From: an uncultured Thermotogae bacterium
GTDB lineage: Bacteria > Bipolaricaulota > Bipolaricaulia > UBA7950 > UBA9294
NCBI GenBank assembly: GCA_964551625.1
Contig: CAZKDW010000001.1
Coordinates: forward strand, 13,115 to 40,823
Length of the DNA: 27,709 nt
Reading direction: 5' to 3'
In this document: positions 4,836-22,000 of the stretch, piece by piece
How the letters are laid out: the number at the start of each line of letters is the position of its first letter
Numbering within the stretch: position 1 is the stretch's first letter
Notes under the pieces: model-generated
What the model was told of the DNA's origin: nothing
The model's database searches: none
The model's input: the letters and a program-made list of their open reading frames with translations, nothing else
Made by a program: the position numbers and the translations under genes

Positions 4836-4868
4836 TCTCACGTCTCCTTTCTAGCAAGCGAATCCGGA

Positions 4869-5477
4869 TTATGCAATCGTTTCGTCCAGTGTCTTCTCTA
4901 GCAGCCAAGCAACGTTTTCTGCAAAACGTACCACCGTCTCAATGCCCTCTGTGTCCTTTGCAGCATCTCCGACTGAACGGGCAACTCCGATATTCCAATA
5001 GGTTGAACCGGGAACAATAAACTCATTAATGTTGAACCAGAGAAGAAGCTGTGCGAAGGCAAAATTCTGTCCCGCACGCCGGGCAACAGCAATCGGGCCA
5101 CCTATTTTGCGTGCAAACGGACGGGGAAGGCTGTGTGGGTGCCCGGCCATGCCTGGGAATCCTGCACGGACAAGCAACGACCACACATCCGGATGAACAG
5201 CGCTGTAGTGGACAGGTGAGCCAACGAGGATCGCATCTGCTACCAGCATCTTCTCGTAGATTTCGTGAAAGTCATCTCCCGCGACCTGGCATACCCTTGG
5301 GGTAGCGTTCCAGCAGGCATAGCACGCTTGGCAACTCTGAATCGTCTTATCGTGAAGTACCACCGATTCTGTGCGAATTCCCTTATCTCGCAACGTACCC
5401 ATCGCTACGTCGAGATACGCAGCGGAATTGCTGTCAAGCCGTGGACTTCCACAGATAGCCAGCGCCTGCCGACTCAT
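4869..5477 (-). CDS. Iron-sulfur flavoprotein (Isf; flavodoxin-like fold)
   Basis: GSPRLDSNS FMN loop, CQACYACWNATPRVC (CX2CX2CX7C), DAILVGSPVHY, VARRAG, PGSTYWN. Confidence 0.88.
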   Translation of the reverse strand: MSRQALAICGSPRLDSNSAAYLDVAMGTLRDKGIRTESVVLHDKTIQSCQACYACWNATPRVCQVAGDDFHEIYEKMLVADAILVGSPVHYSAVHPDVWSLLVRAGFPGMAGHPHSLPRPFARKIGGPIAVARRAGQNFAFAQLLLWFNINEFIVPGSTYWNIGVARSVGDAAKDTEGIETVVRFAENVAWLLEKTLDETIA

Positions 5478-5500
5478 TGTTCACTCCCTTCAATACCTGC

Positions 5501-6202
5501 TCAAAGCCCCAGATAGGCTCGCTTCACGTGCTCGTTGCCAAGCAGCTCGTCAGACGGTCCCTCAAGCACAACCTCACCTGTTTCAATCACATACCCGCGA
5601 TCGACGGCATGCAGGCTTTGCCGGACATTTTGCTCAGCCATCATGACTGACATCCGCTCACTGATGCTTCGCAATGTGTGGAATAGCTCCGTCACCAACG
5701 AAGGCTGAAGCCCAAGCGACGGCTCATCAAGAATAAGGAGCTTGGGCATGGACATTAGCGCACGGGCAATCGCCAGCATTCGCTGCTCCCCACCGCTCAA
5801 CGTCCCTGCGAGTTGCCGTGCACGGTCGTTCAGAATCGGGAACATCTCATACGCGGCATCAAGGGATTTCGCCATGTGCTTGTGTGCTGCCGGGATGTAG
5901 GCCGCGCCGGATTCTAGATTTGCACGAACCGACATGAACGGGAACAACTCGCGTTCTTGTGGCACCACAGCAATTCCAGCACGAATGATCTGATGCGTTG
6001 ACAGGCGAACCAGCGACGAGCCTTCGAAGCTAATTTCCCCACTCTTGGGTCGGACCAGCCCAACAATGGCATTAACCAATGTGGTCTTCCCCGCACCGTT
6101 TGGGCCGAATACGCCGACAGATTCATTTCCGATTTCCAACGACAGGTCTCGAAGGACGTGCGCCTTGCCGTAGTACTGATTAACCTTGGAAATGCTGAGC
6201 AT
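5501..6202 (-). CDS. livF: HAAT/Liv-type ABC transporter ATP-binding subunit
   Basis: GPNGAGKTT, LSGGEQRMLAIARALM, LILDEPSLGL, C-terminal AYLG. The symbol is a family label only; the substrate is not established. Confidence 0.93.
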   Translation of the reverse strand: MLSISKVNQYYGKAHVLRDLSLEIGNESVGVFGPNGAGKTTLVNAIVGLVRPKSGEISFEGSSLVRLSTHQIIRAGIAVVPQERELFPFMSVRANLESGAAYIPAAHKHMAKSLDAAYEMFPILNDRARQLAGTLSGGEQRMLAIARALMSMPKLLILDEPSLGLQPSLVTELFHTLRSISERMSVMMAEQNVRQSLHAVDRGYVIETGEVVLEGPSDELLGNEHVKRAYLGL

Positions 6203-6918
6203 TACTCCTCCTCTCCAAGATAGGCCGTGATCACTTGGGGGTCTGCAGACACGTCCGCATAGGGCCCCTCAGCGATAATCATCCCTCCATTTAAAACGAT
6301 GACTCTGTCTGTCAGCTCGCGGATGACGCTCATCACGTGCTCGACAACGCAAATAGCCACCCCTTGACCGCGAATCGCCTTAACAGATGAGACCATGTCC
6401 TTCGTCTCATCGCTATTCAAACCGGCCATCACTTCATCAAGGAAAAGTACGCTGGGACGAGAAGCTAAGGCACGCCCAATCTCAAGTTTTTTGATCTCAA
6501 GAACTGTGAGATTTGAAACATCTCGATCCATCTCACTCAGCTCAAGCAGTTCACCGATCTCATTAGCAATCCTACGCGCCTCACGCAAGCCAACTCGCTG
6601 TCCGAAGAGAGCGCCAACCATGATATTCTCCTGTGCGGTGAGATCCTCTAGAGGCTGAACTAGCTGAAACGTTCGCCCAATCCCCAAGCGACATCGAACA
6701 TAGGCAGGAGCCATAGTGATCTCCTTGCCGCTGAGGTAAATTCGACCCTCATTGGGCATGTATAGACCGGAAATGACATGGATGAGCGTCGTCTTGCCAG
6801 CGCCGTTCGGGCCGATAATCCCGAGGATTTCGTCCTCCCCCAAACTGAAGGTCACATCACTCAACGCCACCAGACCGCCGAAACGCCGCGTAAGAGATTC
6901 AGTCGTCAAGACAGCCAT
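6202..6918 (-). CDS. livG: HAAT/Liv-type ABC transporter ATP-binding subunit
   Basis: FGGLVAL, GPNGAGKTT, GIGRTFQ, LFLDEVMAGL, VVEHVM, VITAYLG. TAATG overlap with livF. GTG 6921 is an alternative start. Confidence 0.93.
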   Translation of the reverse strand: MAVLTTESLTRRFGGLVALSDVTFSLGEDEILGIIGPNGAGKTTLIHVISGLYMPNEGRIYLSGKEITMAPAYVRCRLGIGRTFQLVQPLEDLTAQENIMVGALFGQRVGLREARRIANEIGELLELSEMDRDVSNLTVLEIKKLEIGRALASRPSVLFLDEVMAGLNSDETKDMVSSVKAIRGQGVAICVVEHVMSVIRELTDRVIVLNGGMIIAEGPYADVSADPQVITAYLGEEE

Positions 6919-7018
6919 CACTCACACCCCCCATCATTACTCGCACTCAAGCGACACAGCAGCCATTGCGCTCCGATTTGTTCATTTTCTACCGCATATC
7001 TATTGGCTACGCCGACCA

Positions 7019-7954
7019 TCAGCTACCACGTCCCGATTGAAATTGGCGAACTCTCGCCCTCAATGCGCCCACGAATCCTTGCGGAAGGAACAGTGTCACC
7101 AAAACAATGATCCCGCCATAGACCAATAGATGTCCGTAGGGAATCTGCAGCTTTAAGTATTCGCCAAGAACGCCGAGAACGAGTGCTCCAACAACGGGTC
7201 CCCACGTGCTGTGAACGCCGCCAAGCAAAGCCATCGCCAGAGGAAGAAGCAGGAAGTTAGCATTGAAACTTCCCTCAGGAGATACAAATCCATAAACATG
7301 GGCGTAGGCTCCACCGGCTATTCCCTGAAGAACAGAGGTAACCGCGAACACGAACACGAGATACCAGAAGACATGAATGCCACTCGATTTGGCCACACGT
7401 TCGTCGTTACGGATCGAGGTCAAGGCAAGACGAATTCTAGTATGCTGGAACACTTCCGACATCCCAATCGCAAGAATAGCAACACCCAATGCGAGCCAAT
7501 AGACCTGCGTGGTATTCCCGTTGAAAACGCACGTCGGGAGCATCATCCCTTCTGGCCCGCCAGTTAAGCTAGGAATGTTGCGCACAACTACAGTAAAAAT
7601 GCTAGCAAGCGCAAGCGTGGTAATTGCGAAGTACATGCCTCGCAATCTTAGAACCGCCAGACCAACCAATAGAGCGACAACTCCCGCAAAGACACCTCCA
7701 AGCAGGATGCTAGTGATAGGATTGACACCCACATTGAGGAAGAGTAGCACGGCCGCATAGCTTCCCAATCCAAAAAAACCGGCTGTGCCGAAGCTGAGTT
7801 GTCCTGATCGAAGCAACATGTCCCAGCTCAGCGCTAGCGTCATGTAGATCAGCGTCGTGACAGCCACTTGCTGTGTATAAGCCCCCGAAACAAGCGGAAA
7901 TACCGCGGCCAACGCCGCCCCTAAAGCATAGCCAATATATCTTGAGTTCCTCAT
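7019..7954 (-). CDS. livM: HAAT/Liv-type ABC transporter permease
   Basis: GQLSFGTAGFFGLGSY, LRLRGMYFAITTL, LTGGPEG, multiple TM helices. Confidence 0.92.
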   Translation of the reverse strand: MRNSRYIGYALGAALAAVFPLVSGAYTQQVAVTTLIYMTLALSWDMLLRSGQLSFGTAGFFGLGSYAAVLLFLNVGVNPITSILLGGVFAGVVALLVGLAVLRLRGMYFAITTLALASIFTVVVRNIPSLTGGPEGMMLPTCVFNGNTTQVYWLALGVAILAIGMSEVFQHTRIRLALTSIRNDERVAKSSGIHVFWYLVFVFAVTSVLQGIAGGAYAHVYGFVSPEGSFNANFLLLPLAMALLGGVHSTWGPVVGALVLGVLGEYLKLQIPYGHLLVYGGIIVLVTLFLPQGFVGALRARVRQFQSGRGS

Positions 7955-8886
7955 ACCACGCGCCTCCGGTACGATCTCGTCATGATCACTGCGACCAGTA
8001 CAGCAAAGAACACGACGTCAGCCCAGCCGCCGTACCCCCGGAAGGACAGCACAAAGGCTTCTGCAATGCCTAGCGCGAAGCCTCCCCAGACAACGCCTGG
8101 CAGGTTGCCAATGCCTGCCATCGCGATCAAACAAAATGACTTCATTGTGAAGGGAGAGCCGACCGCCGGAAACACCGAATGTCGTGTGAGGAACAGGGCG
8201 CCAATCGCCCCTACCAACGCGATCGATATACTAAAAATTAACATGTACGTTCGATTCACGTCAATACCAACTAGCTTCGCTCCGCGCGGATTCTGGCCAA
8301 CTGCAAGCGCTGCTTTGCCTAGCCGCGTACGGCGCAAGAATAGAAGCAATCCAGCAAGCAGGACGAGCGCAGCGCCGGTATAGACAAACGCGTATGTGCC
8401 GAATCTCAATGAGCCGAGGCTTATGGACGAATACACGTAGCTCAGATGCGGTTTGAGAGGACGCGAGGTCCACATCAGGTTGGCAAACTGCGCCGCCATC
8501 ATGGCCAGTCCGAATGTCAGCAGTAGTTGATTCAGTTCCGGTGCCTTTAGAGCACGGCGGATTGTCAACAAGTAGGTAGCCGCTCCGATCAGCGCAAACA
8601 CTGCCAGCGCTGGAATAATCGCCACGAGTGGATCCAATCCCGTGTAAACGCCTAGCCAATAGGCAAAATAAGCTCCCAACATCATGAACTCACCATGAGC
8701 CAGGTTAATAATCCCCACAATCCCAAGAATCAGCGCCATTGGCAATGCAATAAGCGAGTACACGCCTCCACGCTGAATGCCCTCAATCAGCGCATATGGC
8801 TTCCAAACTGCCAACAGCACCAACACAATCATCGACACGAGGGCTGTCACATACCGTCTTTGTTGCAGCTTGCGAAGCAATGTCAT
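7951..8886 (-). CDS. livH: HAAT/Liv-type ABC transporter permease
   Basis: GIINLAHGEFMMLGAY, LLLTFGL, AVGQNPRGAKLVGID, AMAGIGNLPG. Start placed at ATG 8886 (GGGGTG RBS) because the longer track start runs through a hairpin. ATGA overlap with livM. Confidence 0.9.
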   Translation of the reverse strand: MTLLRKLQQRRYVTALVSMIVLVLLAVWKPYALIEGIQRGGVYSLIALPMALILGIVGIINLAHGEFMMLGAYFAYWLGVYTGLDPLVAIIPALAVFALIGAATYLLTIRRALKAPELNQLLLTFGLAMMAAQFANLMWTSRPLKPHLSYVYSSISLGSLRFGTYAFVYTGAALVLLAGLLLFLRRTRLGKAALAVGQNPRGAKLVGIDVNRTYMLIFSISIALVGAIGALFLTRHSVFPAVGSPFTMKSFCLIAMAGIGNLPGVVWGGFALGIAEAFVLSFRGYGGWADVVFFAVLVAVIMTRSYRRRVV

Positions 8887-8908
8887 GTCACCCCAATCCC
8901 TTGTTGCC

Positions 8909-8937
8909 GGACCGGCTCGGCAACGCCGAGCCGGTCC
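8909..8937 (-). other. Perfect 13-bp GC-rich stem-loop between the binding-protein and permease genes
   Basis: GGACCGGCTCGGC-AAC-GCCGAGCCGGTCC; no long U-tract follows on the sense strand. Confidence 0.8.
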
Positions 8938-8967
8938 ATGCATATCTAGCCCATATCGGGCGTTCTT

Positions 8968-10185
8968 CTATCGGCCAGTGTACGGGAAGTGCGGCAATGC
9001 TGTGGCGAACTCGAACGGCCACAGAATTTGCTGCGAACCATCCTGCCACTGGAGGATCTTCTGCCCCTGGAATCCCTGGTGCTCGATCAGGTTCGAAGGA
9101 GTGAACGTCAGAGTTTCGCCAAGCGGCGAATCATACGACGTCTCTTCCAAGGCGGCAATTAGTGCCTCTTTCTCCAACGTGCCAGCGCGGGTGATAGCTT
9201 CTGCGACAACATACACGTTCGTATAGCCAAGCGGTGCAAAATACGTCGCCGGCTCTTCTTCGTGCATCTCGATGTATGCATTCCAGAAATGGTCGCTGAC
9301 CGGGCTGATATTCCTCATCGACGGCGCCCACATGCCATAGGCGACAACGCCTTCCGCTAGCGGGGATTCGCCGAAGTCAGCTGGCCAGCCAGGAGGGGAC
9401 CCAACAAACAATGAAGGAGCAAAGCCAATCTCGCGCGCCTGCTCCATAATCGGAAGTGCGTCTGCGCCATATCCAACCCAGATGAAGATATCTGGATCGA
9501 TTTCCTGTGCGTGACGCAGGACGGAGCGATAGTCGCCACCACCAAACACAGCACTCTTGAACGACTCACCGACGTTGTCCCAGGCGTCATGGGCAACTAG
9601 ACTACCAGCGTATGATCCGCTCCCAAACGCGCCCTCTTCATAGGCCCAGAAAGCAGTTTTAATGTCGATCAGCGGATACTGTGCTGAAATGTCAGCCCAG
9701 CCCTGCACGTAACTGCCACCCTGAAGATAATCCCAGGGATGAAGGTGGAAGTACCAATCTTCACCTTCCATCGCTTCCTCAACGAGCGACGAGGCCGCGC
9801 CGGCCCAGACCGTAACCTTTTCATACTTCTTCAGCGTCGGGATTTCTCCAAGATGGACGCCGCTGCTCATTCCACCAATAAAGATGTCGACTTCATCGAC
9901 TGTTGCCAGTCTGTCGATCGCCGCCGCACCCTTGGCTGCATCGAATTCACTATCGATGACAATCAGTTCCAGCTGGCGTCCGAGGATACCGCCAGCCGCG
10001 TTAATCTCGGCGACTGCCAGTTCCATCGCTTTCGTACTCTGGGCACCTGTGATATCGCCGAGCGGATTGACCGCACCAAGCTTGATGGGGCCTTCCTGCG
10101 CAACCGCAATGAAGACCAAGCCGACAATCATGACGGCTGCAAGAATTCCTACCTTAAGAAATGATACTTTGCCTTTGGTACTCAC
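8968..10185 (-). CDS. HAAT/Liv-family (type I periplasmic) substrate-binding protein
   Basis: PIKLGAVNPLG, MELAVAEINAAGGILGRQLELIVID, AYTNVYVVAEAITRAG-like C-terminal helix. Signal peptide ending AVA-QE. GTG 10185 follows GGGAGG; ATG 10209 is an alternative start. Confidence 0.9.
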   Translation of the reverse strand: MSTKGKVSFLKVGILAAVMIVGLVFIAVAQEGPIKLGAVNPLGDITGAQSTKAMELAVAEINAAGGILGRQLELIVIDSEFDAAKGAAAIDRLATVDEVDIFIGGMSSGVHLGEIPTLKKYEKVTVWAGAASSLVEEAMEGEDWYFHLHPWDYLQGGSYVQGWADISAQYPLIDIKTAFWAYEEGAFGSGSYAGSLVAHDAWDNVGESFKSAVFGGGDYRSVLRHAQEIDPDIFIWVGYGADALPIMEQAREIGFAPSLFVGSPPGWPADFGESPLAEGVVAYGMWAPSMRNISPVSDHFWNAYIEMHEEEPATYFAPLGYTNVYVVAEAITRAGTLEKEALIAALEETSYDSPLGETLTFTPSNLIEHQGFQGQKILQWQDGSQQILWPFEFATALPHFPYTGR

Positions 10186-10273
10186 TCTAACCTCCCTGAT
10201 ATTGTTCATTCAGTATTCGCCGAATTCGCCCGTTCGTTGCTAGGTATCACCTCCTGATAGGATTTGCAAAGTT

Positions 10274-11104
10274 TCACGACGGCATCTCGTCTGGCATCTT
10301 CGAATGCTTCAACAAGAATCCAACAACTACCGTCAGAAATTCTCCTGCTCGTTCAAGAAATGCTCCATGTCCTGCATTCGGCAACGTGATGAATTCGCAC
10401 TGCGGAATTGCATCGTACATTTCCTCCATCAACCGCACCGGAGTGATCATGTCATCGTCAGCACCGATCAGCAGCGTCGGCATGCTAAGACCATTCAGAT
10501 CCTCGTCAGACACTCGAAACCCCATGGTGCTCCGGCACAATCGGCCAAACCCATCGAACCATTCCTTGGTCAACAGCGACTTGAACATCGCTTGTCGCTC
10601 GTGCAGCATGTCAAGGTTCTTAGCGTAGAACTCCCTCGAATAGATGAACGGAACAGCCAACTGAAAGAAACGTTCGCCATCATTTAGATTAGCGGCCACT
10701 TCCCAGGCACGTCCGATCTCGGCCAGATGATTCGAGATGTAGTGATTTGCGTTGGCGAGAGTCAGCGTTCGCACGCGATCCGGATGGGCGACAGCTACTC
10801 GCTGTGCCACTTGGCCGCCGTACGATAGTCCAACCAAATGCGCGTTCGGCAGTTCGAGCGTGTCAAGCAATCCGATAACGTCCTGCACGTGAACGTCAAG
10901 GCGATATTCTCCGTTCGCCTTCTGCGAACGTCCTTGGTCTCGAAGATCAATAAGAATGAGTCTGACATGACGCGACAGCACTGGAATATGCTGCGCCCAG
11001 CTGGCCGTGTTCATCATGATTCCGCTCAATAGGACGACTGGGTCGCCTTTTCCGTGCTCCTCATAATAAATCTCAAGATCGTCGTTCGATCTAAATGTCG
11101 CCAT
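10274..11104 (-). CDS. Cytoplasmic alpha/beta hydrolase (PcaD/enol-lactonase-like esterase)
   Basis: DLRDQGRS, nucleophile elbow GLSYGG, GADDDMITP (acid), AGHG (His). No signal peptide. Confidence 0.88.
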   Translation of the reverse strand: MATFRSNDDLEIYYEEHGKGDPVVLLSGIMMNTASWAQHIPVLSRHVRLILIDLRDQGRSQKANGEYRLDVHVQDVIGLLDTLELPNAHLVGLSYGGQVAQRVAVAHPDRVRTLTLANANHYISNHLAEIGRAWEVAANLNDGERFFQLAVPFIYSREFYAKNLDMLHERQAMFKSLLTKEWFDGFGRLCRSTMGFRVSDEDLNGLSMPTLLIGADDDMITPVRLMEEMYDAIPQCEFITLPNAGHGAFLERAGEFLTVVVGFLLKHSKMPDEMPS

Positions 11105-11909
11105 ATTCGCCCACCTTCTGTTGCGTATCTTGCTGTCTTGTGGTCTTCAGTCGTCCGTCCGCCAGCTGCTCGCGCACCAAGTCCGCAAACGTACTGTCAG
11201 CAAAGCATTCGGAAAATCGGTCGGACTCCACACTCAGACCGGCTGCAAAGGGCAGGTGCTGCGATGCGTAGATCGCCTGTTTGGCGGCAGTGAACGCATG
11301 TGCGGAGATGGCCTTCGTTCGCTCGGCTAACGCTGAGGCTCGATTCTCGACGTCTGCGGAGGCAACCATCTCATGGATCAGCCCAGCGTTCAGTGCTTCG
11401 CGCGCTTTGTACAATCTTCCAGTGAGGATCATCTCGGTGGCTCTGCCGATGCCGATCACGCGTGGCAAACGCTGTGTTCCACCACCCCCGGGGATAATGC
11501 CAAGCTTCACCTCGGGTAGGCCGATCCGCGACGCATCACTCGCCACTCGCAGATCGCAGGCCAAGGCGAACTCCAGTCCACCACCGAAACACAATCCATC
11601 AATTGCTGCAATCAGCAACAATGGACTTGCCTCCATGAGGTTGAATAACCCTTGAATACGAACCGAGAAGTCACGCGCCTCAGCAGGAGACAGTTGAACC
11701 ATCTCAACTCCGTCCGCTCCGCCGATGAAATGCGTCTCGCCAGCACCCTGATAGACGATCGCGCGAGCACCAGACGCTTCAGCAACCTCAAGATGCCCCT
11801 GCAACTGCACGAGAGTCTCGGAGTCCAACGAATTTCGGTCTCCTGGACGATTGATGGTCACCCAATGGACATCATCCGCTTCGCGAATCACTAGGTTCGA
11901 GAATCCCAT
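11091..11909 (-). CDS. Enoyl-CoA hydratase (crotonase family)
   Basis: FIGGAD oxyanion loop, CFGGGLE and LPEVKLGIIPGGGGTQRL with both catalytic Glu present. ATG 11909, or GTG 11948 overlapping the upstream stop. Confidence 0.92.
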   Translation of the reverse strand: MGFSNLVIREADDVHWVTINRPGDRNSLDSETLVQLQGHLEVAEASGARAIVYQGAGETHFIGGADGVEMVQLSPAEARDFSVRIQGLFNLMEASPLLLIAAIDGLCFGGGLEFALACDLRVASDASRIGLPEVKLGIIPGGGGTQRLPRVIGIGRATEMILTGRLYKAREALNAGLIHEMVASADVENRASALAERTKAISAHAFTAAKQAIYASQHLPFAAGLSVESDRFSECFADSTFADLVREQLADGRLKTTRQQDTQQKVGEYGDI

Positions 11910-11947
11910 GCTTACTCGATGTCCTTCGCCCCGGTGTCTCTCGTCCA

Positions 11948-12718
11948 CTAGATCACCAAGCCTCCATTCGGACTGAGCACCTGTCCGGTGAAGAAGTCAG
12001 CTCCTGGACTGGCCAGAAACCAGATGAGTTCGGCGATCTCTTGCGGCAATGCAAATCGCTTCAGCGGAGTCCGTCGCACAATTTGCTCCTTGAACCGGTC
12101 ATCCATTGCATCAAGCAGTGGCGTTTGTACATATCCCGGGGCAACCGCGTTGACTCGCAAGTTGTACCGTGCCACTTCCCGGGCAAGCGTCTTGGTCAGC
12201 TGGACCACGCCCGCCTTGCTTGCACTGTAGTGAAGTGCTCCAGGAGTCGGCATAAGCGCCGAGACTGAGCTAAGGTTGACGATCCGGCCGCATTTATATC
12301 CCTTCATCCAACGCACCGCTTCACGACAGCAGTAGAACGTACCGCTCAGAGTGACGCTGATCATTCGATCCCATTGGTCGTCAGTCATGTCTTCTATGAA
12401 CGTTGCCGCATCGAGAATACCCACACTGTTCACTAGGAGATCAAGCCGCTCGCAGCGATCCTGGAGGATGCCGAACAGCGCAGCGACCTGCATGCTGTCC
12501 GAGACGTCAGTTCGATACGCCTCCGCCTTGCCTCCGTCGCGCACAATCTCCGCAGCAACTTGTTTCGTGCACTCAAGATCTACATCGGCAATGAAGACGC
12601 GCACGCCGTCGCTAGCCAGTCTCATGGCCACCGCACGCCCGATTCCTGATGCGCCACCAGTCACTAGGGCGGTTTCGCAGATGTAGGTCTTCGTCACTTC
12701 CTTCATTTCCGACATCAC
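11948..12718 (-). CDS. Classical SDR oxidoreductase (FabG-like, predicted NAD(H)-preferring)
   Basis: TGGASGIG, IADVD (acidic residue at the end of beta2), NSVG, LSS, YSASK, VNAVAPG, DGG-like NGG tail. Confidence 0.9.
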   Translation of the reverse strand: MMSEMKEVTKTYICETALVTGGASGIGRAVAMRLASDGVRVFIADVDLECTKQVAAEIVRDGGKAEAYRTDVSDSMQVAALFGILQDRCERLDLLVNSVGILDAATFIEDMTDDQWDRMISVTLSGTFYCCREAVRWMKGYKCGRIVNLSSVSALMPTPGALHYSASKAGVVQLTKTLAREVARYNLRVNAVAPGYVQTPLLDAMDDRFKEQIVRRTPLKRFALPQEIAELIWFLASPGADFFTGQVLSPNGGLVI

Positions 12719-13464
12719 GCCTCCAGGAACCTGTTGTACGCTTTCTTCGACTGCGCTGTTGGGAAGATGACGAACGGTTCCTTCCCCATCTGCTCAATCG
12801 TTCCTTCGGCCACGTCCTCGGCAGAGTCCATGTGCCCGCGTAGCCGATCAGCGACTTGGCTCATCGCCTCAGCGCCAACTCCGACTCCGAAGAACCCGGT
12901 ATCCGTCAAATGTGGGCACACGACCTGGACGGAAATGTCTGAGTCCTCAAGTTCTCGTCGAAGCCCTCGACTCATTCCTACCACCGCATGTTTGGCTGCC
13001 AGATAGGCCGAAACGTTCGGTGCGTGAGCAATCAATCCACCAGTGGAAGCAATGTTGACGATCATCCCATGCCCAGCATCCCTCATCGCGGGAAGCACCT
13101 GCTGAGTCATCCGGAAGACTGCGATGACGTTCACATCGAATAATGAGCGCAGATCGGACTCCTCTATTTCGTTGAACGGCGCATAAAGTCCGAATCCCGC
13201 GTTGTTGATCAGAACATCGATCCGCCCCCACTCATTAAGGACATGCTCGACGAGTTGTCGACGTTCGTCGTCGTTACTCACGTCACACGGGATCGTCAAG
13301 GTCTCACCCGCACATGAACCAGCAACCTTGGCCAACTGCTCGGCGCGACGCGCGGCGAGAACCACGCGAGCCCCTCGTTTCGAACAGGCGACAGCCAGTG
13401 CGGCACCAATCCCGGAACTGGCTCCGGTGATGATCACGGTTTTCTCCGTCAATCGATTCGTCAT
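12715..13464 (-). CDS. Classical SDR oxidoreductase (predicted NADP(H)-preferring)
   Basis: TGASSGIG, AARR, NNAG, IAS, YLAAK. ATG 13464, or GTG 13470. Confidence 0.88.
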   Translation of the reverse strand: MTNRLTEKTVIITGASSGIGAALAVACSKRGARVVLAARRAEQLAKVAGSCAGETLTIPCDVSNDDERRQLVEHVLNEWGRIDVLINNAGFGLYAPFNEIEESDLRSLFDVNVIAVFRMTQQVLPAMRDAGHGMIVNIASTGGLIAHAPNVSAYLAAKHAVVGMSRGLRRELEDSDISVQVVCPHLTDTGFFGVGVGAEAMSQVADRLRGHMDSAEDVAEGTIEQMGKEPFVIFPTAQSKKAYNRFLEA

Positions 13465-13491
13465 CCGCACCTTCCGCCTCGGTTCATGCTC

Positions 13492-14772
13492 CTAGAATCC
13501 ACCGTATGCCTCACGCTCCCATTCCATCTCGGCGTTGGAGTAGAGCTCGTACGTCCCTGCTCCGAATACGCTGTTCAACGCCTGAGCTGTCGGCTCATCC
13601 GATGCCTCAGCGAACGCAGCGATAAGCTGCATCGTTTCAGCCGGATGATGAATCGGAAAGCCATGGTCGTAGCCATGGTCTGCATGAAGCATGACCGCGG
13701 TCACCGTCGCGCCCGCGCGTCGCAAGTCGTACTTGGTGTTCTTCGTGATGGAGTCATCGATGACCAGATCGCCCCGCCATGAGGTTCGATCCGTCTGTGC
13801 CTTGACCAGAAGAACCCGCTTCCCTTCGAAGGCTGCCGTTCGATCTGCCCCTGGGATCGAGACTGAGGTCCCGTCACGATTCGTGTGTTGAAGGATGCTG
13901 GAAGTCGCATTGAAGCGATGGCTCGCATACAACGATTCAGGCATGTAGACGGTGGACAACACATCCTCGATTGCGTTCAAGTACCCCGAATTGTCCAAGT
14001 ATGTTGGTTCTTTGGCGATCCCTAGCAGCGGATCGAATTTGAGCACATCGTTAAAGACAACCATGTTCCAAATGACGGACGCATTCTTGGCGGTGCGATT
14101 CTCTCCACCCCATGATCTCTGATGAAAGGCGACTGCAGATTGCGAGTCAGCCCAGTCTCCAGTGCTGTACGACAACCCAGTCTCTGGATCGTCGCCGACC
14201 GTGTTACCGGCGAATAGCACACGAACACCGCGCGTTCCAATACCGGCAAGAGAAACGATGCCTGAATACTTTGAGGGATCGAGGTCAACCATCAATTGAG
14301 CCACACCGAATCCCATCGAGTGGCCGACAAGAGTGATGTTCCCGGCCTGTAGAAGCGGATCAGTTTGAACGATATCGGCGAAGTCTCGGGCAAAATCATC
14401 AAGGGATTCAATCGGATGCACATAGGTGGAGCCACCACTGCCACGGTAGTCAAAGGCGTAGAACGTGTATGCTTCTCGAATCTCCTTGGTCGCTTCTACG
14501 AGCGCAAGAAGAGGTTCGAAGCTACGCCCGGAGCAGTTGTTGCCAGCAAGAAGCACCACAGGCGAGGGCCCGCAACCGGCCATCCTCACATGAATCGTCT
14601 CGCCACTACTCACCTGAAACAGCTGGGCCTCCTTCGATTCCTGTACATCCTGTCGCCCGCATGACGCAAGAAGAACCGCGCACAGCAGTCCGGCCGCTAG
14701 GACTCTACCATACTGCCTTTGCGAGGGCACTCTCGGCATGTTGTTCATCCATTCAACGATCCTTCGCTTCAC
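13492..14772 (-). CDS. Predicted lipoprotein alpha/beta hydrolase (esterase/depolymerase-like)
   Basis: Basic n-region, hydrophobic stretch and lipobox LLAS-C (Cys codon 14659-14661). DYRGSGGS, GHSMG (14311-14325), GDLVI, DHG. The start could also be ATG 14748 or 14739. Confidence 0.82.
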   Translation of the reverse strand: MKRRIVEWMNNMPRVPSQRQYGRVLAAGLLCAVLLASCGRQDVQESKEAQLFQVSSGETIHVRMAGCGPSPVVLLAGNNCSGRSFEPLLALVEATKEIREAYTFYAFDYRGSGGSTYVHPIESLDDFARDFADIVQTDPLLQAGNITLVGHSMGFGVAQLMVDLDPSKYSGIVSLAGIGTRGVRVLFAGNTVGDDPETGLSYSTGDWADSQSAVAFHQRSWGGENRTAKNASVIWNMVVFNDVLKFDPLLGIAKEPTYLDNSGYLNAIEDVLSTVYMPESLYASHRFNATSSILQHTNRDGTSVSIPGADRTAAFEGKRVLLVKAQTDRTSWRGDLVIDDSITKNTKYDLRRAGATVTAVMLHADHGYDHGFPIHHPAETMQLIAAFAEASDEPTAQALNSVFGAGTYELYSNAEMEWEREAYGGF

Positions 14773-15510
14773 CTACGTGATCAGACCGCCGTCGACGCTC
14801 AGCACAGCACCATGAACGAATGCCGCTTCGTCGGACGCGAAGAAGAGGTAGATGTTGGCGACATCGCGCGCACTACCTAGGCGTCCAAGTGGCGTTTTGC
14901 TACGCATCAAATCGAGCACCTTCTCTGGCACGCCTTCAGTCATTTCTGTTTGAATGAATCCCGGGGCAACTGCATTCACGTTGATCCCCTTCTTTCCCAA
15001 TTCACGTGCCCAGACCTTGGTCATACCAATGACGCCCGCTTTGGTAGCAGCGTAATTCGTCTGTCCAAAATTGCCATATAGCCCGACAACTGACGACACA
15101 TTGATGATTCGACCGCTGCCCTGCTCAATCATGTGCGGGACCACTGCTTGGGTTGTGTTGAATGTCCCCTTCAAGTTGACATCTACGACCAGATCGAAGT
15201 CAGCTTCTGTCAGCTTGACAAGTTGGCCATCGCGAACGATGCCTGCGTTGTTCACCAAGATGTCAATTCGTCCGAATTCCTTCACTGCCGAGCTAGCCAT
15301 CGCTTGACACGTTTCTCGATCAGTGACATCCGTTCGAATGAACAGCGCCTTGCCGCCACCGGCCACAATCTCCGCAGCGACTGTCTCAGCATGGCTATCC
15401 ACGTCAGCCACGACAATCTTGGCACCCTCGCTGGCGAACAACAGTGCCGCTTCTCGACCAATTCCCCGGCCTGCTCCAGTAATAACGGCAACTTTCCCCT
15501 CTAAACGCAT
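14773..15510 (-). CDS. fabG: 3-oxoacyl-(ACP/CoA) reductase, FabG/PhaB-like SDR
   Basis: TGAGRGIG, VADVD, NNAGIVRD, SSVVGLYGNFGQTNYAATKAGVIGMTK, VNAVAPGFIQTEM, SVDGG. ATG 15510 follows GGAGGAG. It may act on CoA esters rather than ACP. Confidence 0.88.
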   Translation of the reverse strand: MRLEGKVAVITGAGRGIGREAALLFASEGAKIVVADVDSHAETVAAEIVAGGGKALFIRTDVTDRETCQAMASSAVKEFGRIDILVNNAGIVRDGQLVKLTEADFDLVVDVNLKGTFNTTQAVVPHMIEQGSGRIINVSSVVGLYGNFGQTNYAATKAGVIGMTKVWARELGKKGINVNAVAPGFIQTEMTEGVPEKVLDLMRSKTPLGRLGSARDVANIYLFFASDEAAFVHGAVLSVDGGLIT

Positions 15511-15526
15511 ACGCAACTCCTCCCTT

Positions 15527-16546
15527 CTAAACCCATCGGAACAGCGCCGTTGATAGAACGAAGCCCGCTCCCGATGTACAGAACGCCACCAGATCTCCTG
15601 AAACGATTCGGCCTTGCTCAAGCGCGTCATATAGCGCCATGAACACCGACGCAGAACCGGCGTACCCGAACCGATCGGCTACCCAGTGTGTTTTCTCCAT
15701 CGACAAACCCAGCTTTTCCAGCGTTGCTGTTACAGTTCCTAGTTCAACCTGATTCATCAGAACCAGCTTTAGTTCGTCGGGTGTATGGCCAACCGCCGCC
15801 ATCGTCTTGCGCAGCAGGTCAGGCCAGCGCGCAATATTGAAGTCAGCCGGGACGCGATGTGCGTTTTCGTGAAATCGAAGATACTGTTGCCCCGTCTCGA
15901 TCATGTCTGCAGTTGGCGGCCGGCCGGTCCCAAGATAGATACCGTACGTGTCCCAATAGCTCCCTTCAGTCAGCATCTTGGAGGAGAGGTAGCCATCCTC
16001 CTCCGACGGAGAAAGAACAACGGCTCCGGCACCGTCACTGAACAGCATTGAGAGAACCTTGGACGCGGATTCGCTGTAGGGTCTCCAGTCAAGCCATTTC
16101 GTCATTCCGTATGCCCCAATAACCATGACGTGATTAATCGCCGGATCGAGTGCGATATAGTGAGATCCGATTGCCAATGCTATTGTCTCATCAGTACATG
16201 CAGCGTTAATGTCAAACACTCCTGCATTCGTTGCGCCCAACTTGTGCTGGATTACCGCTGATGTCGGTGGACTGATGAAGTCCGGGGTGTCCGTGGCAAG
16301 GATGATCAGATCAAGGTCATCAGGCGTCAGCCCCGCACGTTCTAATGCTTCGCGGGCCGCGTGAACCGCCATGTCAGATGTTGCTTCATCTGCGGCAGCA
16401 CGATAGCGAACGCCGATTCCCTTGCCGTCAAGATATGACTCGACGTCGTAGTTCATCATTTCGCCCAGTTCTGCGTTCGTAATCCTCTCTTGAGGAAGAT
16501 ACATTCCCACGCCTGAGATTCTTGCGGCTCTGATCTGCTTCTCCAT
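15527..16546 (-). CDS. KAS III (FabH)-fold protein with non-canonical active site
   Basis: ISGVGMYLP, ATDTPDFISP, DINAAC (Cys117), LFSDGAGAVVL, FCTSGAG. The HQAN site reads NQVE and the GNTS site reads GYAG. Confidence 0.85.
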   Translation of the reverse strand: MEKQIRAARISGVGMYLPQERITNAELGEMMNYDVESYLDGKGIGVRYRAAADEATSDMAVHAAREALERAGLTPDDLDLIILATDTPDFISPPTSAVIQHKLGATNAGVFDINAACTDETIALAIGSHYIALDPAINHVMVIGAYGMTKWLDWRPYSESASKVLSMLFSDGAGAVVLSPSEEDGYLSSKMLTEGSYWDTYGIYLGTGRPPTADMIETGQQYLRFHENAHRVPADFNIARWPDLLRKTMAAVGHTPDELKLVLMNQVELGTVTATLEKLGLSMEKTHWVADRFGYAGSASVFMALYDALEQGRIVSGDLVAFCTSGAGFVLSTALFRWV

Positions 16547-16548
16547 AC

Positions 16549-16998
16549 CTATTCAGTCCTCTCTTCGGCTAGAATCACGGTCGCTCGTCCATCTCGAAGA
16601 ACCTCAGGGCGAGGTTCAAGCCTCATACCTACCTGAATTGCATCAGCGGGAATACCACGGATCCATCCCATAACACGAAGTCCGTTGTCCATTTCCACAA
16701 TGCCCACTGGAGAAGGCTGATACGCGTACGATGAACATGGCGCGGTTCTCGACAAGTCCGGTGTGAAATGCTCTGGGGTGACGAACACGGTGGTGTATGA
16801 CAGCAACCGTCCCGTACCAGTTACGCACACCCATCCGAACTCAGTACCGAAACAATCGGGGCAGTCGCTCCGAGGCGGGTACTGGATCTTCCCACACGTC
16901 TCACATTTGGAGCCGAGCAGCTCTCCCCGTTCGAGACCATCCACAAATCCGCTGACCTTTGTATCTTGAACCAATAAACTGAAGTCTTTGAATTCCAT
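16549..16998 (-). CDS. DUF35 Zn-ribbon/OB-fold protein (thiolase partner)
   Basis: CETCG...YPPRSDCPDC, GTGRLLSYTTV, VGIVEMDNG. ATG 16998 follows GGGAGG; GTG 17004 is an alternative start. Confidence 0.92.
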   Translation of the reverse strand: MEFKDFSLLVQDTKVSGFVDGLERGELLGSKCETCGKIQYPPRSDCPDCFGTEFGWVCVTGTGRLLSYTTVFVTPEHFTPDLSRTAPCSSYAYQPSPVGIVEMDNGLRVMGWIRGIPADAIQVGMRLEPRPEVLRDGRATVILAEERTE

Positions 16999-17009
16999 TC
17001 CCACCTCCC

Positions 17010-18170
17010 TTATGAGCGACTGAAGACATGCACAGCTGAATGCTGGCCATTGCCACCGACGTTATGCGATAGACCGATTTCAGCGCCCTGAACCTGACGT
17101 CCGGGATCTGCTTCTCCACGCAATTGCTTGGCAATCTCCACTGCCATCGAAACACCTGTGGTGCCAATCGGATGACCTTTTGACTTGAGCCCGCCATCGA
17201 CATTGACTGGAGTCTCTCCACCGATGTAGGTCTGCCGATCCTCGACCCAAGGGCCACCTTCACCTCTCGGGCAGAAGCCCAGATCCTCGTAAGCCACAAT
17301 TTCAGCGATCGTGAAGCAATCATGGACGACGGCCACATCAACCTGTTTGGCGTCAATTCCGGCCATTTCATAGGCCTGATCAGCCGCTTCGACTGTCGCA
17401 CCAAGCGTGGTCAGATCATCGCGATGAGCCAGCGCTAGCGAGCCAGTCCCTAGGCCGAGGCCACTCATCCAGATTGGATCCTTGCTCAGACGTTTGGCCA
17501 TCTTCTCAGACGCGAGCAAAATGGCAGCCGCTCCGTCGGAGATCAGGCAGCAGTCGTATAGCTTGAGGGGGTCGGCGACCATGAAAGAGTTCATTGCCTT
17601 TTCAAGGGTAATCTCTTTCTGCATGTGGGCGTACGGATTCATCGCGCCATAGTGATGGTTCTTCACCGCGACAGCCGCAAGTTGTTCTTGCGTCGTTCCA
17701 TACTTCGCCATATGCGCGCGGGCAATCATTGCGTAGTAGCCGGGGAATGTCATGCCGAAGGGATATTCCCACAGGAAATCGCCGGCGCGGCCAAGCACTT
17801 CGGTCGCCATGGACGTCGGGACCTCTGTCATCTTTTCAGCGCCAACAACCAAAACGAGGTCGGCTAGGCCAGATGCGATATTCATCCATCCGGCGCGAAC
17901 CGCCATGCTACCAGACGCACATGCAGCCTCTACGCGAAAGCTCGGTTTGGGGTGAAATCCAAGATAGTCGACAACCTGAGCCGTCGGTTGGAGAGCAAAA
18001 CTAAGCTCATCCGAAGCTACACTGACAATCATCGACTCCACATCCGCCAATGGAATGTCAGCATCCTCAAGGCAAGCCTTCACCGCCTCGAATGCCAGTT
18101 CACGCAGCGACGCATCGGATCGAATCCCGAAGCGGCCTTGCCCAACGCCAATGATTCCGACTTTCCCCAT
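17010..18170 (-). CDS. Thiolase, SCP2/archaeal type
   Basis: VEAACASG (Cys84), VGAEKM, AVKNH, ISDGAAA, HDCFTIAE, NVDGGLKSKGHPIG, HNVGG. AAGGAG RBS. Confidence 0.93.
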   Translation of the reverse strand: MGKVGIIGVGQGRFGIRSDASLRELAFEAVKACLEDADIPLADVESMIVSVASDELSFALQPTAQVVDYLGFHPKPSFRVEAACASGSMAVRAGWMNIASGLADLVLVVGAEKMTEVPTSMATEVLGRAGDFLWEYPFGMTFPGYYAMIARAHMAKYGTTQEQLAAVAVKNHHYGAMNPYAHMQKEITLEKAMNSFMVADPLKLYDCCLISDGAAAILLASEKMAKRLSKDPIWMSGLGLGTGSLALAHRDDLTTLGATVEAADQAYEMAGIDAKQVDVAVVHDCFTIAEIVAYEDLGFCPRGEGGPWVEDRQTYIGGETPVNVDGGLKSKGHPIGTTGVSMAVEIAKQLRGEADPGRQVQGAEIGLSHNVGGNGQHSAVHVFSRS

Positions 18171-18229
18171 TTCAACTCCTTGAATCTCCGTGCTTCGTCG
18201 ACACAGCCAATTGGCGGCGTCTCATTTTA

Positions 18230-18250
18230 TGACACCTGACTCAGGTCTCA
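18230..18250. promoter_or_regulatory. Candidate TetR operator 1
   Basis: TGACACCTGACTCAGGTCTCA, a near-perfect 21-bp palindrome that touches the -10 box and covers the predicted transcription start of the thiolase operon. Confidence 0.8.
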
Positions 18251-18279
18251 CCATAGCATGAATCGTAGCGACTCGTCAA
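18250..18279 (-). promoter_or_regulatory. Sigma70-type promoter of the 16-gene operon
   Basis: Minus strand: TTGACG (18279-18274) N18 TATGGT (18255-18250), with an extended -10 TG. Confidence 0.7.
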
Positions 18280-18395
18280 TACCTACTTCACAGTAATTGC
18301 CTCGATTAGGCTTGAATAGCAAGCTATAGCGCCTGTAGCTCGGCGCTTGGGTTTACGCCAAATCTATTCTTGTGCTCGCAGCTCCGTTTTTTCTC

Positions 18396-18416
18396 TGAGA
18401 GCTGATTCATCTCTCA
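18396..18416. promoter_or_regulatory. Candidate TetR operator 2
   Basis: TGAGAGCTGATTCATCTCTCA, an exact fit to TGAGA-N2-TGA-N-TCA-N2-TCTCA, 46 bp beyond the tetR stop. Confidence 0.72.
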
Positions 18417-18462
18417 TTTTCTGCCATCGGCTAGAAATAGTTCATGAACAGAGTAGATGCGA

Positions 18463-19698
18463 TTAGACCAACTGTAGAGACATGCCGCGCTCAAGGATGT
18501 CGAGCAAATCAGCAAGCATGTCATCGGAAATCGTGCCTTCCGCCCCGCTGAAGAAAGCCCACAATGCAACGGAGTGTCCAATCCCAAGAAGTGCGTAGGC
18601 GAGAGGTTCAAGTGCCAGAGCACGAATTTCTCCACGCTCCATACCACGATGCATTCCTCTCATATAGCCCTTGGCCAACCGTTCGTAATACCAACGTCCT
18701 GTGTCATGATCAACCAATTCCGCCTCGCGAAGAATCCTGTAGGCTCCCTGATGCATAGCAATGAATCGAAAGAAAGTTCGGAATCCTTCCCGTTCAATAT
18801 CGCGGCGATCCTCAAGACCTGCTAGCGCCTGCTGCTCATCAGATCGAAATCTGCGGTTGATCTCGCGAAGCACCTCAACAAACACAGCTACTTTGCTCGG
18901 GAAATAGAGATAGAAAGTGCCCTGTGCCACTCCAGAGAGATAAGTTATTCCGCTGATGGGCGTTTGATAGAAACCTGCCTGTCCAAACAGCTGCTCCGCC
19001 GCCATGAGTAGGGACTGCTTCGTTGCCTCGCCGCCCTGAAGCTCTTCAACCTCTTCAAGGGATGGAATAGGAACTGCTGACTGAGTCATCTTGGTTGCTC
19101 GCTCAGATCCCGAATCAAAACCTCTCAAGATGATCGAATCGAGAGTCTGTAGAACGCCCTCGTTCAGTGAACCGGGTTCCCAAAGGATGTAGCGCATAAC
19201 AGTGAACTCAACGATCCCGAGCAAGACGTATGCTGCCATTCTCGCATCAATCGGTCTCAACTCACCTGACTGGATGCCAAGTCGGACAATCCGCTGCAAT
19301 GCATCGGCTATTTTTGCTCGGAAATGCCGATGGATCTTCATCTGCATCGATTCTGATCCCCGGCCAACTCGGTAAAGCGTAGTCTCCCTCTCCACAAAGG
19401 CCAGCACGCGGCGATAGGCACAGATCAGAGCCTCTGGCCCTGTCTTCCCTTCGTTGCCTACTGCCTCTATCTGCTCGCACAGGGCCGCCTCAAGCCGCTC
19501 CACCAATAGGACAAACACTTCTTCCTTGCTTTCGAAGTATCGATAGAAAGTCCCGTTGGCTAGGCCTGCACGCTGACAAATCTCCGAGACTGATGCGACG
19601 TAATAGCCTCGCTCGCTAAATATGCTTTCAGCAGCTCGAAGCAGTGCCTCACGCGTTTTCTGAGCTTTGGGCAGATAGGGCAATTGGCGTTTTGTCAC
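18463..19698 (-). CDS. Tandem (two-repeat) TetR/AcrR-family regulator
   Basis: Two complete TetR units: TREALLRAAESIFSERGY...GLANGTFYRYFESKEEVF and TKQSLLMAAEQLFGQAGF...GVAQGTFYLYFPSKVAVF, each with its own C-terminal domain (GELR.../GEIR...AY.LLGI). GTG 19698 preferred; ATG 19764/19761 are alternatives. Confidence 0.9.
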   Translation of the reverse strand: MTKRQLPYLPKAQKTREALLRAAESIFSERGYYVASVSEICQRAGLANGTFYRYFESKEEVFVLLVERLEAALCEQIEAVGNEGKTGPEALICAYRRVLAFVERETTLYRVGRGSESMQMKIHRHFRAKIADALQRIVRLGIQSGELRPIDARMAAYVLLGIVEFTVMRYILWEPGSLNEGVLQTLDSIILRGFDSGSERATKMTQSAVPIPSLEEVEELQGGEATKQSLLMAAEQLFGQAGFYQTPISGITYLSGVAQGTFYLYFPSKVAVFVEVLREINRRFRSDEQQALAGLEDRRDIEREGFRTFFRFIAMHQGAYRILREAELVDHDTGRWYYERLAKGYMRGMHRGMERGEIRALALEPLAYALLGIGHSVALWAFFSGAEGTISDDMLADLLDILERGMSLQLV

Positions 19699-19778
19699 GT
19701 CTGTTTCCTTCCTCACTATCTGGACCGGGGTCTCTGAGTAGCTAATCTGTGGATGACCCATCATCCCAACACCAACGA

Positions 19779-21916: not shown

Positions 21917-21958
21917 GTCGGATGGACATGCAGCAGTTGTCCATTTGATCGAACATTG

Positions 21959-21989: not shown

Positions 21990-22000
21990 GGAGGGTTGGT

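Follow-up and report, generated by a model that had tools for sequence, protein, structure and literature searches.

The DNA analysed here, called the window below, is a stretch of 27,709 nucleotides from an uncultured Thermotogae bacterium that GTDB places in the Bipolaricaulota (assembly GCA_964551625.1, contig CAZKDW010000001.1, positions 13,115 to 40,823 of the forward strand). Our subject is an open reading frame (ORF) on its minus strand, at 13492..14772 (stop codon 13492-13494), which encodes an alpha/beta hydrolase of 426 aa when read from its GTG and which has the sequence features of a lipoprotein. [quoted passage not shown] The sequence blocks on which it based this are all present in the ORF, namely SSGETIHV at residues 54-61, VLLAGNNCS at 73-81, YAFDYRGSGGSTY..IESLDDFARD at 105-130, GHSMGFGVA at 150-158 and VIWNMVVF at 233-240. 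They align with SNGETIAY, VLIHGNMTS, YALDLRGFGQSTYNQSIDSLQDFAED and GWSMGGGVA of 8ynv_A, and the counterpart of the last block, TVWNLLIY, comes from the 89%-identical relative P0087.

The GTG follows immediately on the stop codon of the upstream gene, an ATG at 14746..14748 (Met9) has an AAGGA 11 nt upstream, and the 86%-identical homolog P0002 starts at the Met equivalent to M9. For these three reasons the ATG at 14748 is the likelier start. The public gene call for a 100% identical protein (P0001) starts at M12. A start at M9 or M12 gives a protein of 415-418 aa and puts the lipobox Cys at position 27-30, in the normal range; the length of about 426 aa given at first holds from the GTG and is probably a little too long. 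We consider the gene real and its product folded, because it has homologs at 86-100% identity and an AlphaFold2 model with a mean predicted local distance difference test (pLDDT) score of 90.5. The predicted TM score of the model is 0.87, and confidence is low only at residues 1-48.

From the likelier start, Met9-Ser37 (14662..14748; all features of the gene are on the minus strand) would form a signal peptide with three Arg in its n-region and a hydrophobic core, VLAAGLLCAVLLAS. Hydropathy peaks at 2.9 (Kyte-Doolittle, 12-residue window) and residues 22-36 are a helix in the model. The lipobox, L35-A36-S37-C38 (14659..14670), ends in the predicted lipidated N-terminus of the mature protein, Cys38, and a Cys is aligned there in most family members. 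A short flexible tether follows (residues 39-48, 14629..14658), with pLDDT below 50 for residues 37-45, and then the catalytic alpha/beta-hydrolase domain, residues 49-389 (13606..14628), which is homologous over its whole length to Bacillus-type PhaZ. In this domain we find an oxyanion-loop motif, A-G-N-N-C-S (14530..14547), equivalent to H-G-N-M-T-S of PhaZ; a nucleophile elbow, G-H-S-M-G (14311..14325), whose catalytic Ser152 (14317-14319) aligns with Ser102 of PhaZ; a lid or cap region between strands beta6 and beta7 (residues 178-318, 13819..14241); the catalytic acid, Asp335 (13768..13770), in an invariant W-R-G-D; and the catalytic His370 (13663..13665) in an invariant D-H-G. The last 37 residues (390-426, 13495..13605) are modelled with high confidence and have a conserved E415, W418, E419 and terminal G-F. 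They are a short family-specific tail and not a domain, conserved in the family and absent from Bacillus PhaZ. The mature protein would have 389 aa, a mass of 42.2 kDa and a pI of 4.86, with 49 Asp and Glu to 29 Lys and Arg.

In a large protein collection the hydrolase has 85 homologs, from 100% down to about 40% identity and nearly all 400-450 aa long. The family alignment used throughout (A2) holds 73 sequences and has 47 invariant columns. Ser152, Asp335 and His370 are invariant in all 73, as are G77, N78, S81 and G82 of the oxyanion loop. The residue before G77, where other hydrolases have the His of an HG motif, is P in 57 of the 73 and A in 14, so the AG that the preliminary description remarked on is true of this protein and is one of two common states in its family. 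The x1 residue of the elbow is His in 22 sequences and Tyr in 51. By its core fold, its nucleophile elbow and its Pfam matches, all above the gathering score (Abhydrolase_6 at 41.9 bits, Abhydrolase_1 at 36.1, Hydrolase_4 at 34.8), the protein belongs to the alpha/beta-hydrolase superfamily. No second Pfam domain was found at E up to 1, which agrees with the earlier claim that a substrate-binding domain is missing. Foldseek returned more than 1600 significant matches from the Protein Data Bank (PDB), and the sampled top 50 are all alpha/beta hydrolases.

The family is small, because an exhaustive HMMER search of 1.84 billion representative proteins found only 15 representatives below 1e-30. 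We found no characterised member; the names given to its proteins are only 'alpha/beta hydrolase' or 'pimeloyl-ACP methyl ester carboxylesterase'. Relatives of 550-1060 aa looked at first like candidates for exported multidomain depolymerases and were rejected as such: those no longer than 1027 aa consist of alpha/beta-hydrolase repeats in tandem, the 1060-aa relative has a single C-terminal hydrolase domain, and some of the long relatives have a eukaryote-type RIIa domain. A distant relative of 387 aa (P0163) has a lipobox and a D-H-A-F-P histidine motif, a disrupted elbow (GYGSAMG) and no Pfam hit, and may be an inactive branch or one with an altered mechanism.

Every comparison we made put the Bacillus-type PhaZ first. 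With phmmer against all PDB sequences, the top matches are 8YNV and 8YNW, 'poly(3-hydroxybutyrate) depolymerase', at E 1e-10; 8YNV is PhaZ of B. thuringiensis (PMC12278694, Table 1), and the Foldseek description agrees. A profile of the 73-member family matches 8YNV at 1.4e-23, and the next match is the esterase 5H3H at 2.6e-10. In Foldseek, with the model of pLDDT 90, the six best matches are the six best-ranked PhaZ chains at E of about 1e-21 (TM score 0.83 normalised to PhaZ 8YNV), followed by an aryl esterase of Pseudomonas fluorescens at 1.7e-15. The best structural matches are therefore in the PhaZ family and not in another hydrolase family. In the exhaustive search the family is followed by a gap in score and then by a long tail of proteins mostly 290-303 aa long, with some fragments and multi-domain proteins. 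Nine of the tail proteins were tested on NF050089, the NCBIfam equivalog model for 'intracellular short-chain-length polyhydroxyalkanoate depolymerase' (288 positions, curated cutoff 300 bits). Eight pass the cutoff and the ninth scores 283 bits; true members score 324-431 bits.

We aligned 20 full-length proteins of this tail (A3, Bacillus type) and compared them with A2 by hhalign, which gave a probability of 99.9 and an E-value of 1.5e-35 over 288 columns, covering residues 49-389 with the lid included. The hydrolase is thus homologous to the NF050089 family over the whole domain, and its triad lies at the canonical positions: S152, D335 and H370 correspond to S96, the nearly invariant D245 and the invariant H274 of A3. 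In the lid, W235-N corresponds to the W-N of the PhaZ family, and the invariant F287-N288 to its F-N. Both B. thuringiensis PhaZ (8YNV, and 8YNW for the S102A mutant) and our hydrolase have the core alpha/beta fold and the homologous lid; both have GN..S, D-x-R-G-x-G-x-S-[ST]-Y, SL.DFA.D, the W-N of the lid and the invariant F-N, and neither has a separate substrate-binding domain. The insertions relative to PhaZ that had been proposed are there as well, since the lid has about 50 extra residues, with insertions at about 241-254 and 295-303 and some smaller ones.

The same comparisons show where the two part. On NF050089 the hydrolase scores 80.2 bits (E 1.3e-22, residues 53-293 against model positions 2-216), far from the 300-bit cutoff and outside the PhaZ equivalog. 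Its elbow, G[HY]SMGF in the family, differs from the GWSxGG of PhaZ, in which x1 is Trp; the His of HG has become Pro or Ala; and where PhaZ is cytoplasmic, our hydrolase has a signal peptide, a lipobox and a tether. DED, the PHA Depolymerase Engineering Database (PHA, polyhydroxyalkanoate), labels the class of PhaZ 'intracellular nPHAscl depolymerases (lipase box)'. Based on these comparisons, we place the hydrolase in a small, uncharacterised sister family of NF050089. What had been said of its family is supported, in that the homology with PhaZ is specific, with the caveat that the protein stands outside the PhaZ family itself, given 80 against 300 bits and GHSMG in place of GWSxG.

The N-terminus, MNNMPRVPSQRQYGRVLAAGLLCAVLLAS-C, matches the PROSITE-style lipobox rule, with the Cys at position 30 from M9. 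It also passes the sequence definition of a lipoprotein that we applied, which asks for a charged n-region, an h-region and a lipobox [LVI][ASTVI][GAS]-C whose Cys comes some 15-35 residues after the start. We do not regard the lipobox as a product of chance, because 48 of the 73 family members, from several phyla, match the strict rule. The canonical lipobox is what the preliminary description had read as a signal for export and lipidation. Most of the other 25 members are N-terminally truncated, have near-matches (LEGC, LPGC, ITGC), or, in a Thermotogota-like clade, have a type-I signal or membrane anchor. An export signal is found in nearly all full-length members sampled and appears to be a trait of the family. 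The genes lgt and lspA are absent from the 27.7-kb window, and lipidation and topology are predictions from sequence.

One alternative is that the signal is an artefact of the start codon and that the enzyme stays in the cytoplasm, like Bacillus PhaZ, and acts on the cell's own PHB granules. The annotated GTG is indeed doubtful, but the hydrophobic core and the lipobox come downstream of GTG, M9 and M12 alike; M64, the next Met, is already inside the first conserved beta-strands; and the signal or lipobox is conserved across phyla where the linkers are variable. We find this explanation scarcely credible.

The tether after the Cys is variable and is much longer in proteobacterial homologs, where it is Thr-rich or collagen-like. 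In the Oxalobacteraceae (Paucimonas lemoignei, L018:9644-11140; loci L014, L015 and L017; proteins P0041-P0051), some 40-65 residues separate the lipobox Cys from a conserved GDP motif, with Thr runs (TTTTTTT) or collagen-like G-X-Y repeats (GDQGAQGPAGPAGATGPAGA). Such tethers suggest a stalk that would keep the enzyme off the membrane. We also noted three proteins of 311-336 aa (P0177, P0185 and P0223) with lipoboxes LSSC, LSSC and LTSC that align with NF050089 over its full length at 212-247 bits, below the cutoff of 300. Because these three carry lipoboxes, lipoprotein versions appear to exist much closer to the Bacillus type, and an exported PhaZ of this type would not be unique to our family.

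PHA depolymerases are divided into secreted enzymes with a binding domain, secreted enzymes of the PhaZ7 type, periplasmic enzymes of the Rhodospirillum rubrum type, and intracellular types. The hydrolase is not a classical extracellular dPHAscl depolymerase, as it has no PF10503 (Esterase_PHB) domain and no substrate-binding domain at E up to 1. PhaZ7 of P. lemoignei (2VTV, Lipase_2 type) is exported, has no substrate-binding domain and acts on native or amorphous PHB, which is likely an analogous role, and its elbow core is identical, (A/G)HSMG (PMC2666664). However, PhaZ7 belongs to a different alpha/beta-hydrolase lineage and is secreted free, whereas our hydrolase is predicted to be lipid-anchored, so the likeness is one of function only. 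The hydrolase has no PF01674 match and 2VTV is absent from its 50 best Foldseek matches. PhaZ1 of R. rubrum, a periplasmic PHB depolymerase, is a precedent for a location in the cell envelope; its catalytic domain is of the extracellular type 2, unrelated at family level, and it is not reported as a lipoprotein in the same source (PMC2666664). The second tier of structural matches, namely the P. fluorescens aryl esterase, the non-haem haloperoxidase group and related bacterial esterases (1VA4, 8PI1, 1A8Q and 5H3H), shares the core fold and the triad geometry. These are cytoplasmic proteins of about 270 aa that match 6 to 13 orders of magnitude more weakly than PhaZ and over the core only (profile positions about 40-165), not the lid. 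We infer that the hydrolase would work like an exported counterpart of Bacillus PhaZ, with PhaZ7 as its nearest functional equivalent.

The gene lies in a cluster of co-directional genes on the minus strand, 3237..19764, read from 19764 downward. In order, these encode a double TetR regulator, a thiolase, a DUF35 protein, a KASIII-like protein, a FabG-like short-chain dehydrogenase/reductase (SDR), the hydrolase, two more SDRs, an enoyl-coenzyme A (CoA) hydratase, a cytoplasmic small esterase, a Liv-type ATP-binding cassette (ABC) importer, a flavin mononucleotide (FMN) reductase and an AMP-forming acyl-CoA ligase. Another metagenome bin (P0004/L004) has the genes in the same order at 67% identity. 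This setting, amid importers and a catabolic operon, is unlike that of Bacillus phaZ, which is among the genes of the PHB cycle. The ligase, hydratase, three SDRs and thiolase fit the import and breakdown of a 3-hydroxy acid, as far as gene content can tell. No acyl-CoA dehydrogenase is encoded in the window, in keeping with a substrate that already carries oxygen at C3. The binding protein of the Liv-type importer (8968-10209) has a type-I signal.

Several of the neighbours deserve a description of their own. The thiolase (of the archaeal acetyl-CoA acetyltransferase type), the DUF35 zinc-ribbon/OB protein and the KASIII/HMG-CoA-synthase-like protein lie in a row (15527-18170, minus strand) that recalls the archaeal thiolase-HMGCS-DUF35 complex. 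A KASIII-like gene also adjoins the hydrolase in Thermotogota (L002:11310-12293), where DUF35 is absent. The regulator (18463-19764, minus strand) is a protein of 433 aa with two TetR_N domains, a fused double TetR that is conserved, at 437 aa, in the relative of 67% identity; the Thermotogota locus encodes a TetR_N protein that begins beyond the edge of the locus. The FabG-like SDR is listed as a 285-aa ORF (14773-15630, minus strand) that overlaps the KASIII-like gene by about 100 nt, and its real start is probably Met41 (MRLEGK..., at about 15510), which would make the protein 245 aa long, like its counterpart in the homologous operon. The small esterase (10274-11104, minus strand) is an alpha/beta hydrolase of 276 aa without a signal peptide, co-conserved with the lipoprotein in five loci, and among solved structures it is closest to the metagenomic esterase MGS-M2 (PDB 4Q3L, E 8e-40). 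It may be a cytoplasmic partner that finishes imported oligomers. Divergent from the TetR operon, on the plus strand at 19958-23272, are an acetate-CoA ligase that passes the Acs cutoffs and a transporter of the major facilitator superfamily, which fit an acetate-centred fermentation, or acetate recycling if a CoA-transferase route is used.

A smaller version of the operon is found in Thermotogota (L002). It has a TetR regulator, a protein like butyryl-CoA:acetate CoA-transferase, a PhaA/BktB-like thiolase, a FabG/PhaB-like SDR, the Liv-type ABC importer, the small esterase, the family member and the KASIII-like gene. By sequence likeness this is the set that would be needed to take an imported C4/C5 3-hydroxy acid to acetyl-CoA, that is, to run PHB synthesis backwards. 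A Liv-type binding protein is linked to the hydrolase gene in all nine loci of the clade that have a readable flank.

In other lineages the gene has different neighbours. A scan of one genome per GTDB species gave 37 loci with a family member. Carriers include P. lemoignei DSM 7445, another Paucimonas, Massilia, Pseudoduganella and Zemynaea, and metagenome-assembled genomes (MAGs) with the tags PHBV, PHB and PBSA in their isolate names; the nearest named homologs are in MAGs of Bipolaricaulota/Acetothermia and Thermotogota. In four loci of Agarilytica/Cellvibrionaceae, an AraC regulator and a TonB-dependent receptor precede the gene, and one Agarilytica locus has an SDF symporter directly downstream and an Abhydrolase_3 esterase. 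In a Spirochaetaceae locus, the gene immediately follows an Opp-type ABC importer, which lies upstream. A LuxR-type regulator usually adjoins the gene in Burkholderiales (9 loci), and several of these loci have a divergent DctA-like symporter. In the Pseudoduganella and Spirochaetia loci that we examined first, the neighbourhood was uninformative. In one Agarilytica MAG (AMN13_PHB_gam1) a Lipase_2 (PF01674) gene lies about 4.5 kb downstream of the hydrolase, after an AraC paralog (L040:13260-14339); this is the family of Bacillus LipA, to which PhaZ7 of P. lemoignei is related. The AHSMG motif of PhaZ7 occurs in Bacillus lipases too (DED, PMC2666664). A Deltaproteobacteria MAG has a second alpha/beta hydrolase (L012:8226-9482), of a size seen in exported members (418 aa) and transcribed divergently from the family member, which falls outside the family cluster at the BLAST threshold that we used. 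The sequence of the window itself recurs almost only in salt-lake metagenomes, which account for 11 of the 13 runs listed; of the other two, one is marine and one from sediment.

The DctA-like SDF symporter adjoins the gene in P. lemoignei, in three other Burkholderiales loci and in one Agarilytica locus, and this raises the question of whether the family might be outer-membrane hydrolases of poly(beta-L-malate) (PMLA) that supply malate to a neighbouring dicarboxylate symporter. The PMLA hydrolase of Comamonas acidovorans is an outer-membrane protein of 43 kDa (PMC9210645), close to the 42 kDa of our mature protein, so size and location fit. We nevertheless rejected this candidate, as the Comamonas enzyme is reported not to have the character of a serine esterase (PMC9210645), whereas the Ser-Asp-His triad is invariant in our family. 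The CoA-dependent operon of the window would make no sense for malate, and the synteny in Burkholderiales may simply be inherited. We think a malate polymer a very improbable substrate.

The presence of homologs in MAGs named for PHBV, PHB and PBSA and in classical PHB degraders could also mean that these are true depolymerases of solid, partly crystalline PHB, like the classical secreted enzymes for denatured PHB. A relative of PhaZ in Bacillus megaterium reportedly attacks semicrystalline PHB. Against this, the hydrolase has no substrate-binding domain, no PF10503 and none of the architecture in which a linker joins such a domain; a lipid anchor would keep it at the cell and not on a distant polymer; and its genomic partners are uptake systems for soluble molecules. 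Agarilytica, which is correlated with PHA plastispheres on the deep-sea floor, already encodes more than 10 secretable PHA depolymerases (PMC10817984). We consider activity on solid PHB improbable.

We believe that the most likely function of the hydrolase, with a probability of roughly one half, would be the hydrolysis of 3-hydroxyalkanoate oligomers or amorphous PHA by an enzyme anchored in the cell envelope. The hydrolase would be exported, cut by signal peptidase II and anchored through the lipid on Cys38 to the outside of the cytoplasmic membrane or, where relatives are diderm, to the outer membrane. The catalytic domain, which is distantly homologous to the intracellular Bacillus-type depolymerase of short-chain PHA, would be held on a short tether. 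Ser152 of the GHSMG elbow would attack the ester carbonyl, with His370 and Asp335 completing the triad, and the backbone NH groups of Asn78 and Met153 would probably form the oxyanion hole. The likeliest substrates would be esters of (R)-3-hydroxyalkanoates at the cell surface, that is, soluble oligomers of 3-hydroxybutyrate (3HB) and 3-hydroxyvalerate (3HV). Amorphous PHA released from lysed PHA-storing cells may be a further one, if we assume that it is plentiful in the salt-lake habitat. The adjacent Liv-type ABC transporter would import the products and the co-conserved small esterase would split residual oligomers in the cytoplasm. The acids would then be converted to CoA thioesters and oxidised by FabG/PhaB-like reductases running in reverse, and a thiolase would yield acetyl-CoA. 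We favour an oligomeric or non-crystalline substrate over solid plastic because of the lipid anchor and the missing binding domain, and because the gene is paired with TonB receptors or with Opp or Liv importers and some hosts have many free secreted depolymerases. Activity on 3-hydroxyacyl esters is suggested by homology, operon content and taxonomic distribution.

A number of observations weigh against this function. Identity to PhaZ is about 19%, at which substrate specificity can change, and the low score on NF050089 cannot by itself count as proof, because the unrelated cytoplasmic small esterase of the same operon scores 72 bits over its own N-terminal half. The elbow x1 residue, His or Tyr in the family, is Trp in all 20 Bacillus-type sequences (GWS[TMA]GG). 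According to the PHA Depolymerase Engineering Database, a hydrophobic x1 tends to separate PHA depolymerases from esterases, with a noted exception in P. lemoignei PhaZ7, an enzyme specific for native granules that has AHSMG and lacks a binding domain (PMC2666664). In the window, the divergently transcribed 652-aa ligase was considered as an acetoacetyl-CoA synthetase, but it passes the cutoffs for acetate-CoA ligase (921 bits) and fails those for acetoacetate-CoA ligase; likewise, none of the SDRs reaches the cutoffs for the 3-hydroxybutyrate dehydrogenase BdhA, and they are FabG-like instead. The breakdown of 3HB would not require three SDRs together with a hydratase, an FMN reductase and a ligase of the long-chain type, and this surplus hints at longer or different acids. 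There are no PHA genes near the hydrolase gene in the Burkholderiales and Spirochaetia loci, and some of these adjoin a dicarboxylate-type SDF symporter. The names of the tagged MAGs record provenance only, and that these MAGs are from the plastisphere study (PMC10817984) is plausible but unconfirmed. No RNA runs holding the hydrolase gene were found.

The main rival takes up several of these points. It holds that the protein, anchored in the envelope, is a carboxylesterase or lipase that acts on natural esters of another kind (for instance acylglycerols, esters of the wax or cutin type, hydroxycinnamoyl esters or lactones), that its acid product feeds the neighbouring beta-oxidation-like enzymes, and that the likeness to PhaZ reflects shared ancestry only. 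A His or Tyr at x1 is typically seen in esterases and lipases, not in PHA depolymerases, identity to PhaZ is low, the Pfam domains are only generic Abhydrolase domains, and the structures that rank after PhaZ belong to aryl esterases, zearalenone lactonases and a feruloyl esterase. Some Liv-type binding proteins bind aromatic acids, and the operon, like gene clusters for the beta-oxidation of side chains, combines an acyl-CoA ligase of the long-chain type with a hydratase, several SDRs, and a thiolase accompanied by DUF35. However, PhaZ is ahead of all other esterases by 6 orders of magnitude in the fold E-value and by 13 in the profile E-value, and the lid, which shapes substrate choice, is homologous to that of PhaZ. 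Ordinary fatty acids would call for an acyl-CoA dehydrogenase, which is missing from the window, and in Thermotogota the minimal operon encodes a CoA-transferase of the C4 type together with a PhaA/PhaB-like pair. P. lemoignei, whose very narrow range of substrates centres on PHAs and a few organic acids, has also kept the family. On balance, we regard a different ester as a possible substrate but an unlikely one, and hydrolysis of 3-hydroxyalkanoate oligomers or amorphous PHA as the better account of the protein.

None of the current PHA depolymerase classes includes a lipoprotein branch of the Bacillus intracellular type that is anchored in the envelope, and such a branch has no curated model. 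If the activity is real, the hydrolase gene would be one on which anaerobic PHA turnover could be tested in candidate phyla for which we know of no cultured PHA degraders, and the enzyme a candidate for the cell-surface step from oligomer to monomer in well-known degraders. It would also be a compact salt-lake enzyme without a substrate-binding domain, acidic by its predicted pI of 4.86, for bioplastic recycling or the production of (R)-3HB. If the activity is absent, the family would show that the fold of a cytoplasmic storage-polymer enzyme has been re-used in an exported esterase for nutrient acquisition. We suggest tentatively, as something that may well turn out otherwise, that the family is an unrecognised class of lipoprotein hydrolases of 3HB oligomers and amorphous PHA, of Bacillus intracellular descent, which feeds anaerobes and supplies a missing step in the envelope. 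If so, the enzyme, with a dedicated ABC importer and PhaB and PhaA working in reverse, would let strictly anaerobic, uncultivated Bipolaricaulota and Thermotogota of hypersaline sediments live on the PHA that other microbes release, and in P. lemoignei and the marine plastisphere Agarilytica it would supply the step that is missing in the envelope, after secreted depolymerases and before the uptake of monomers.

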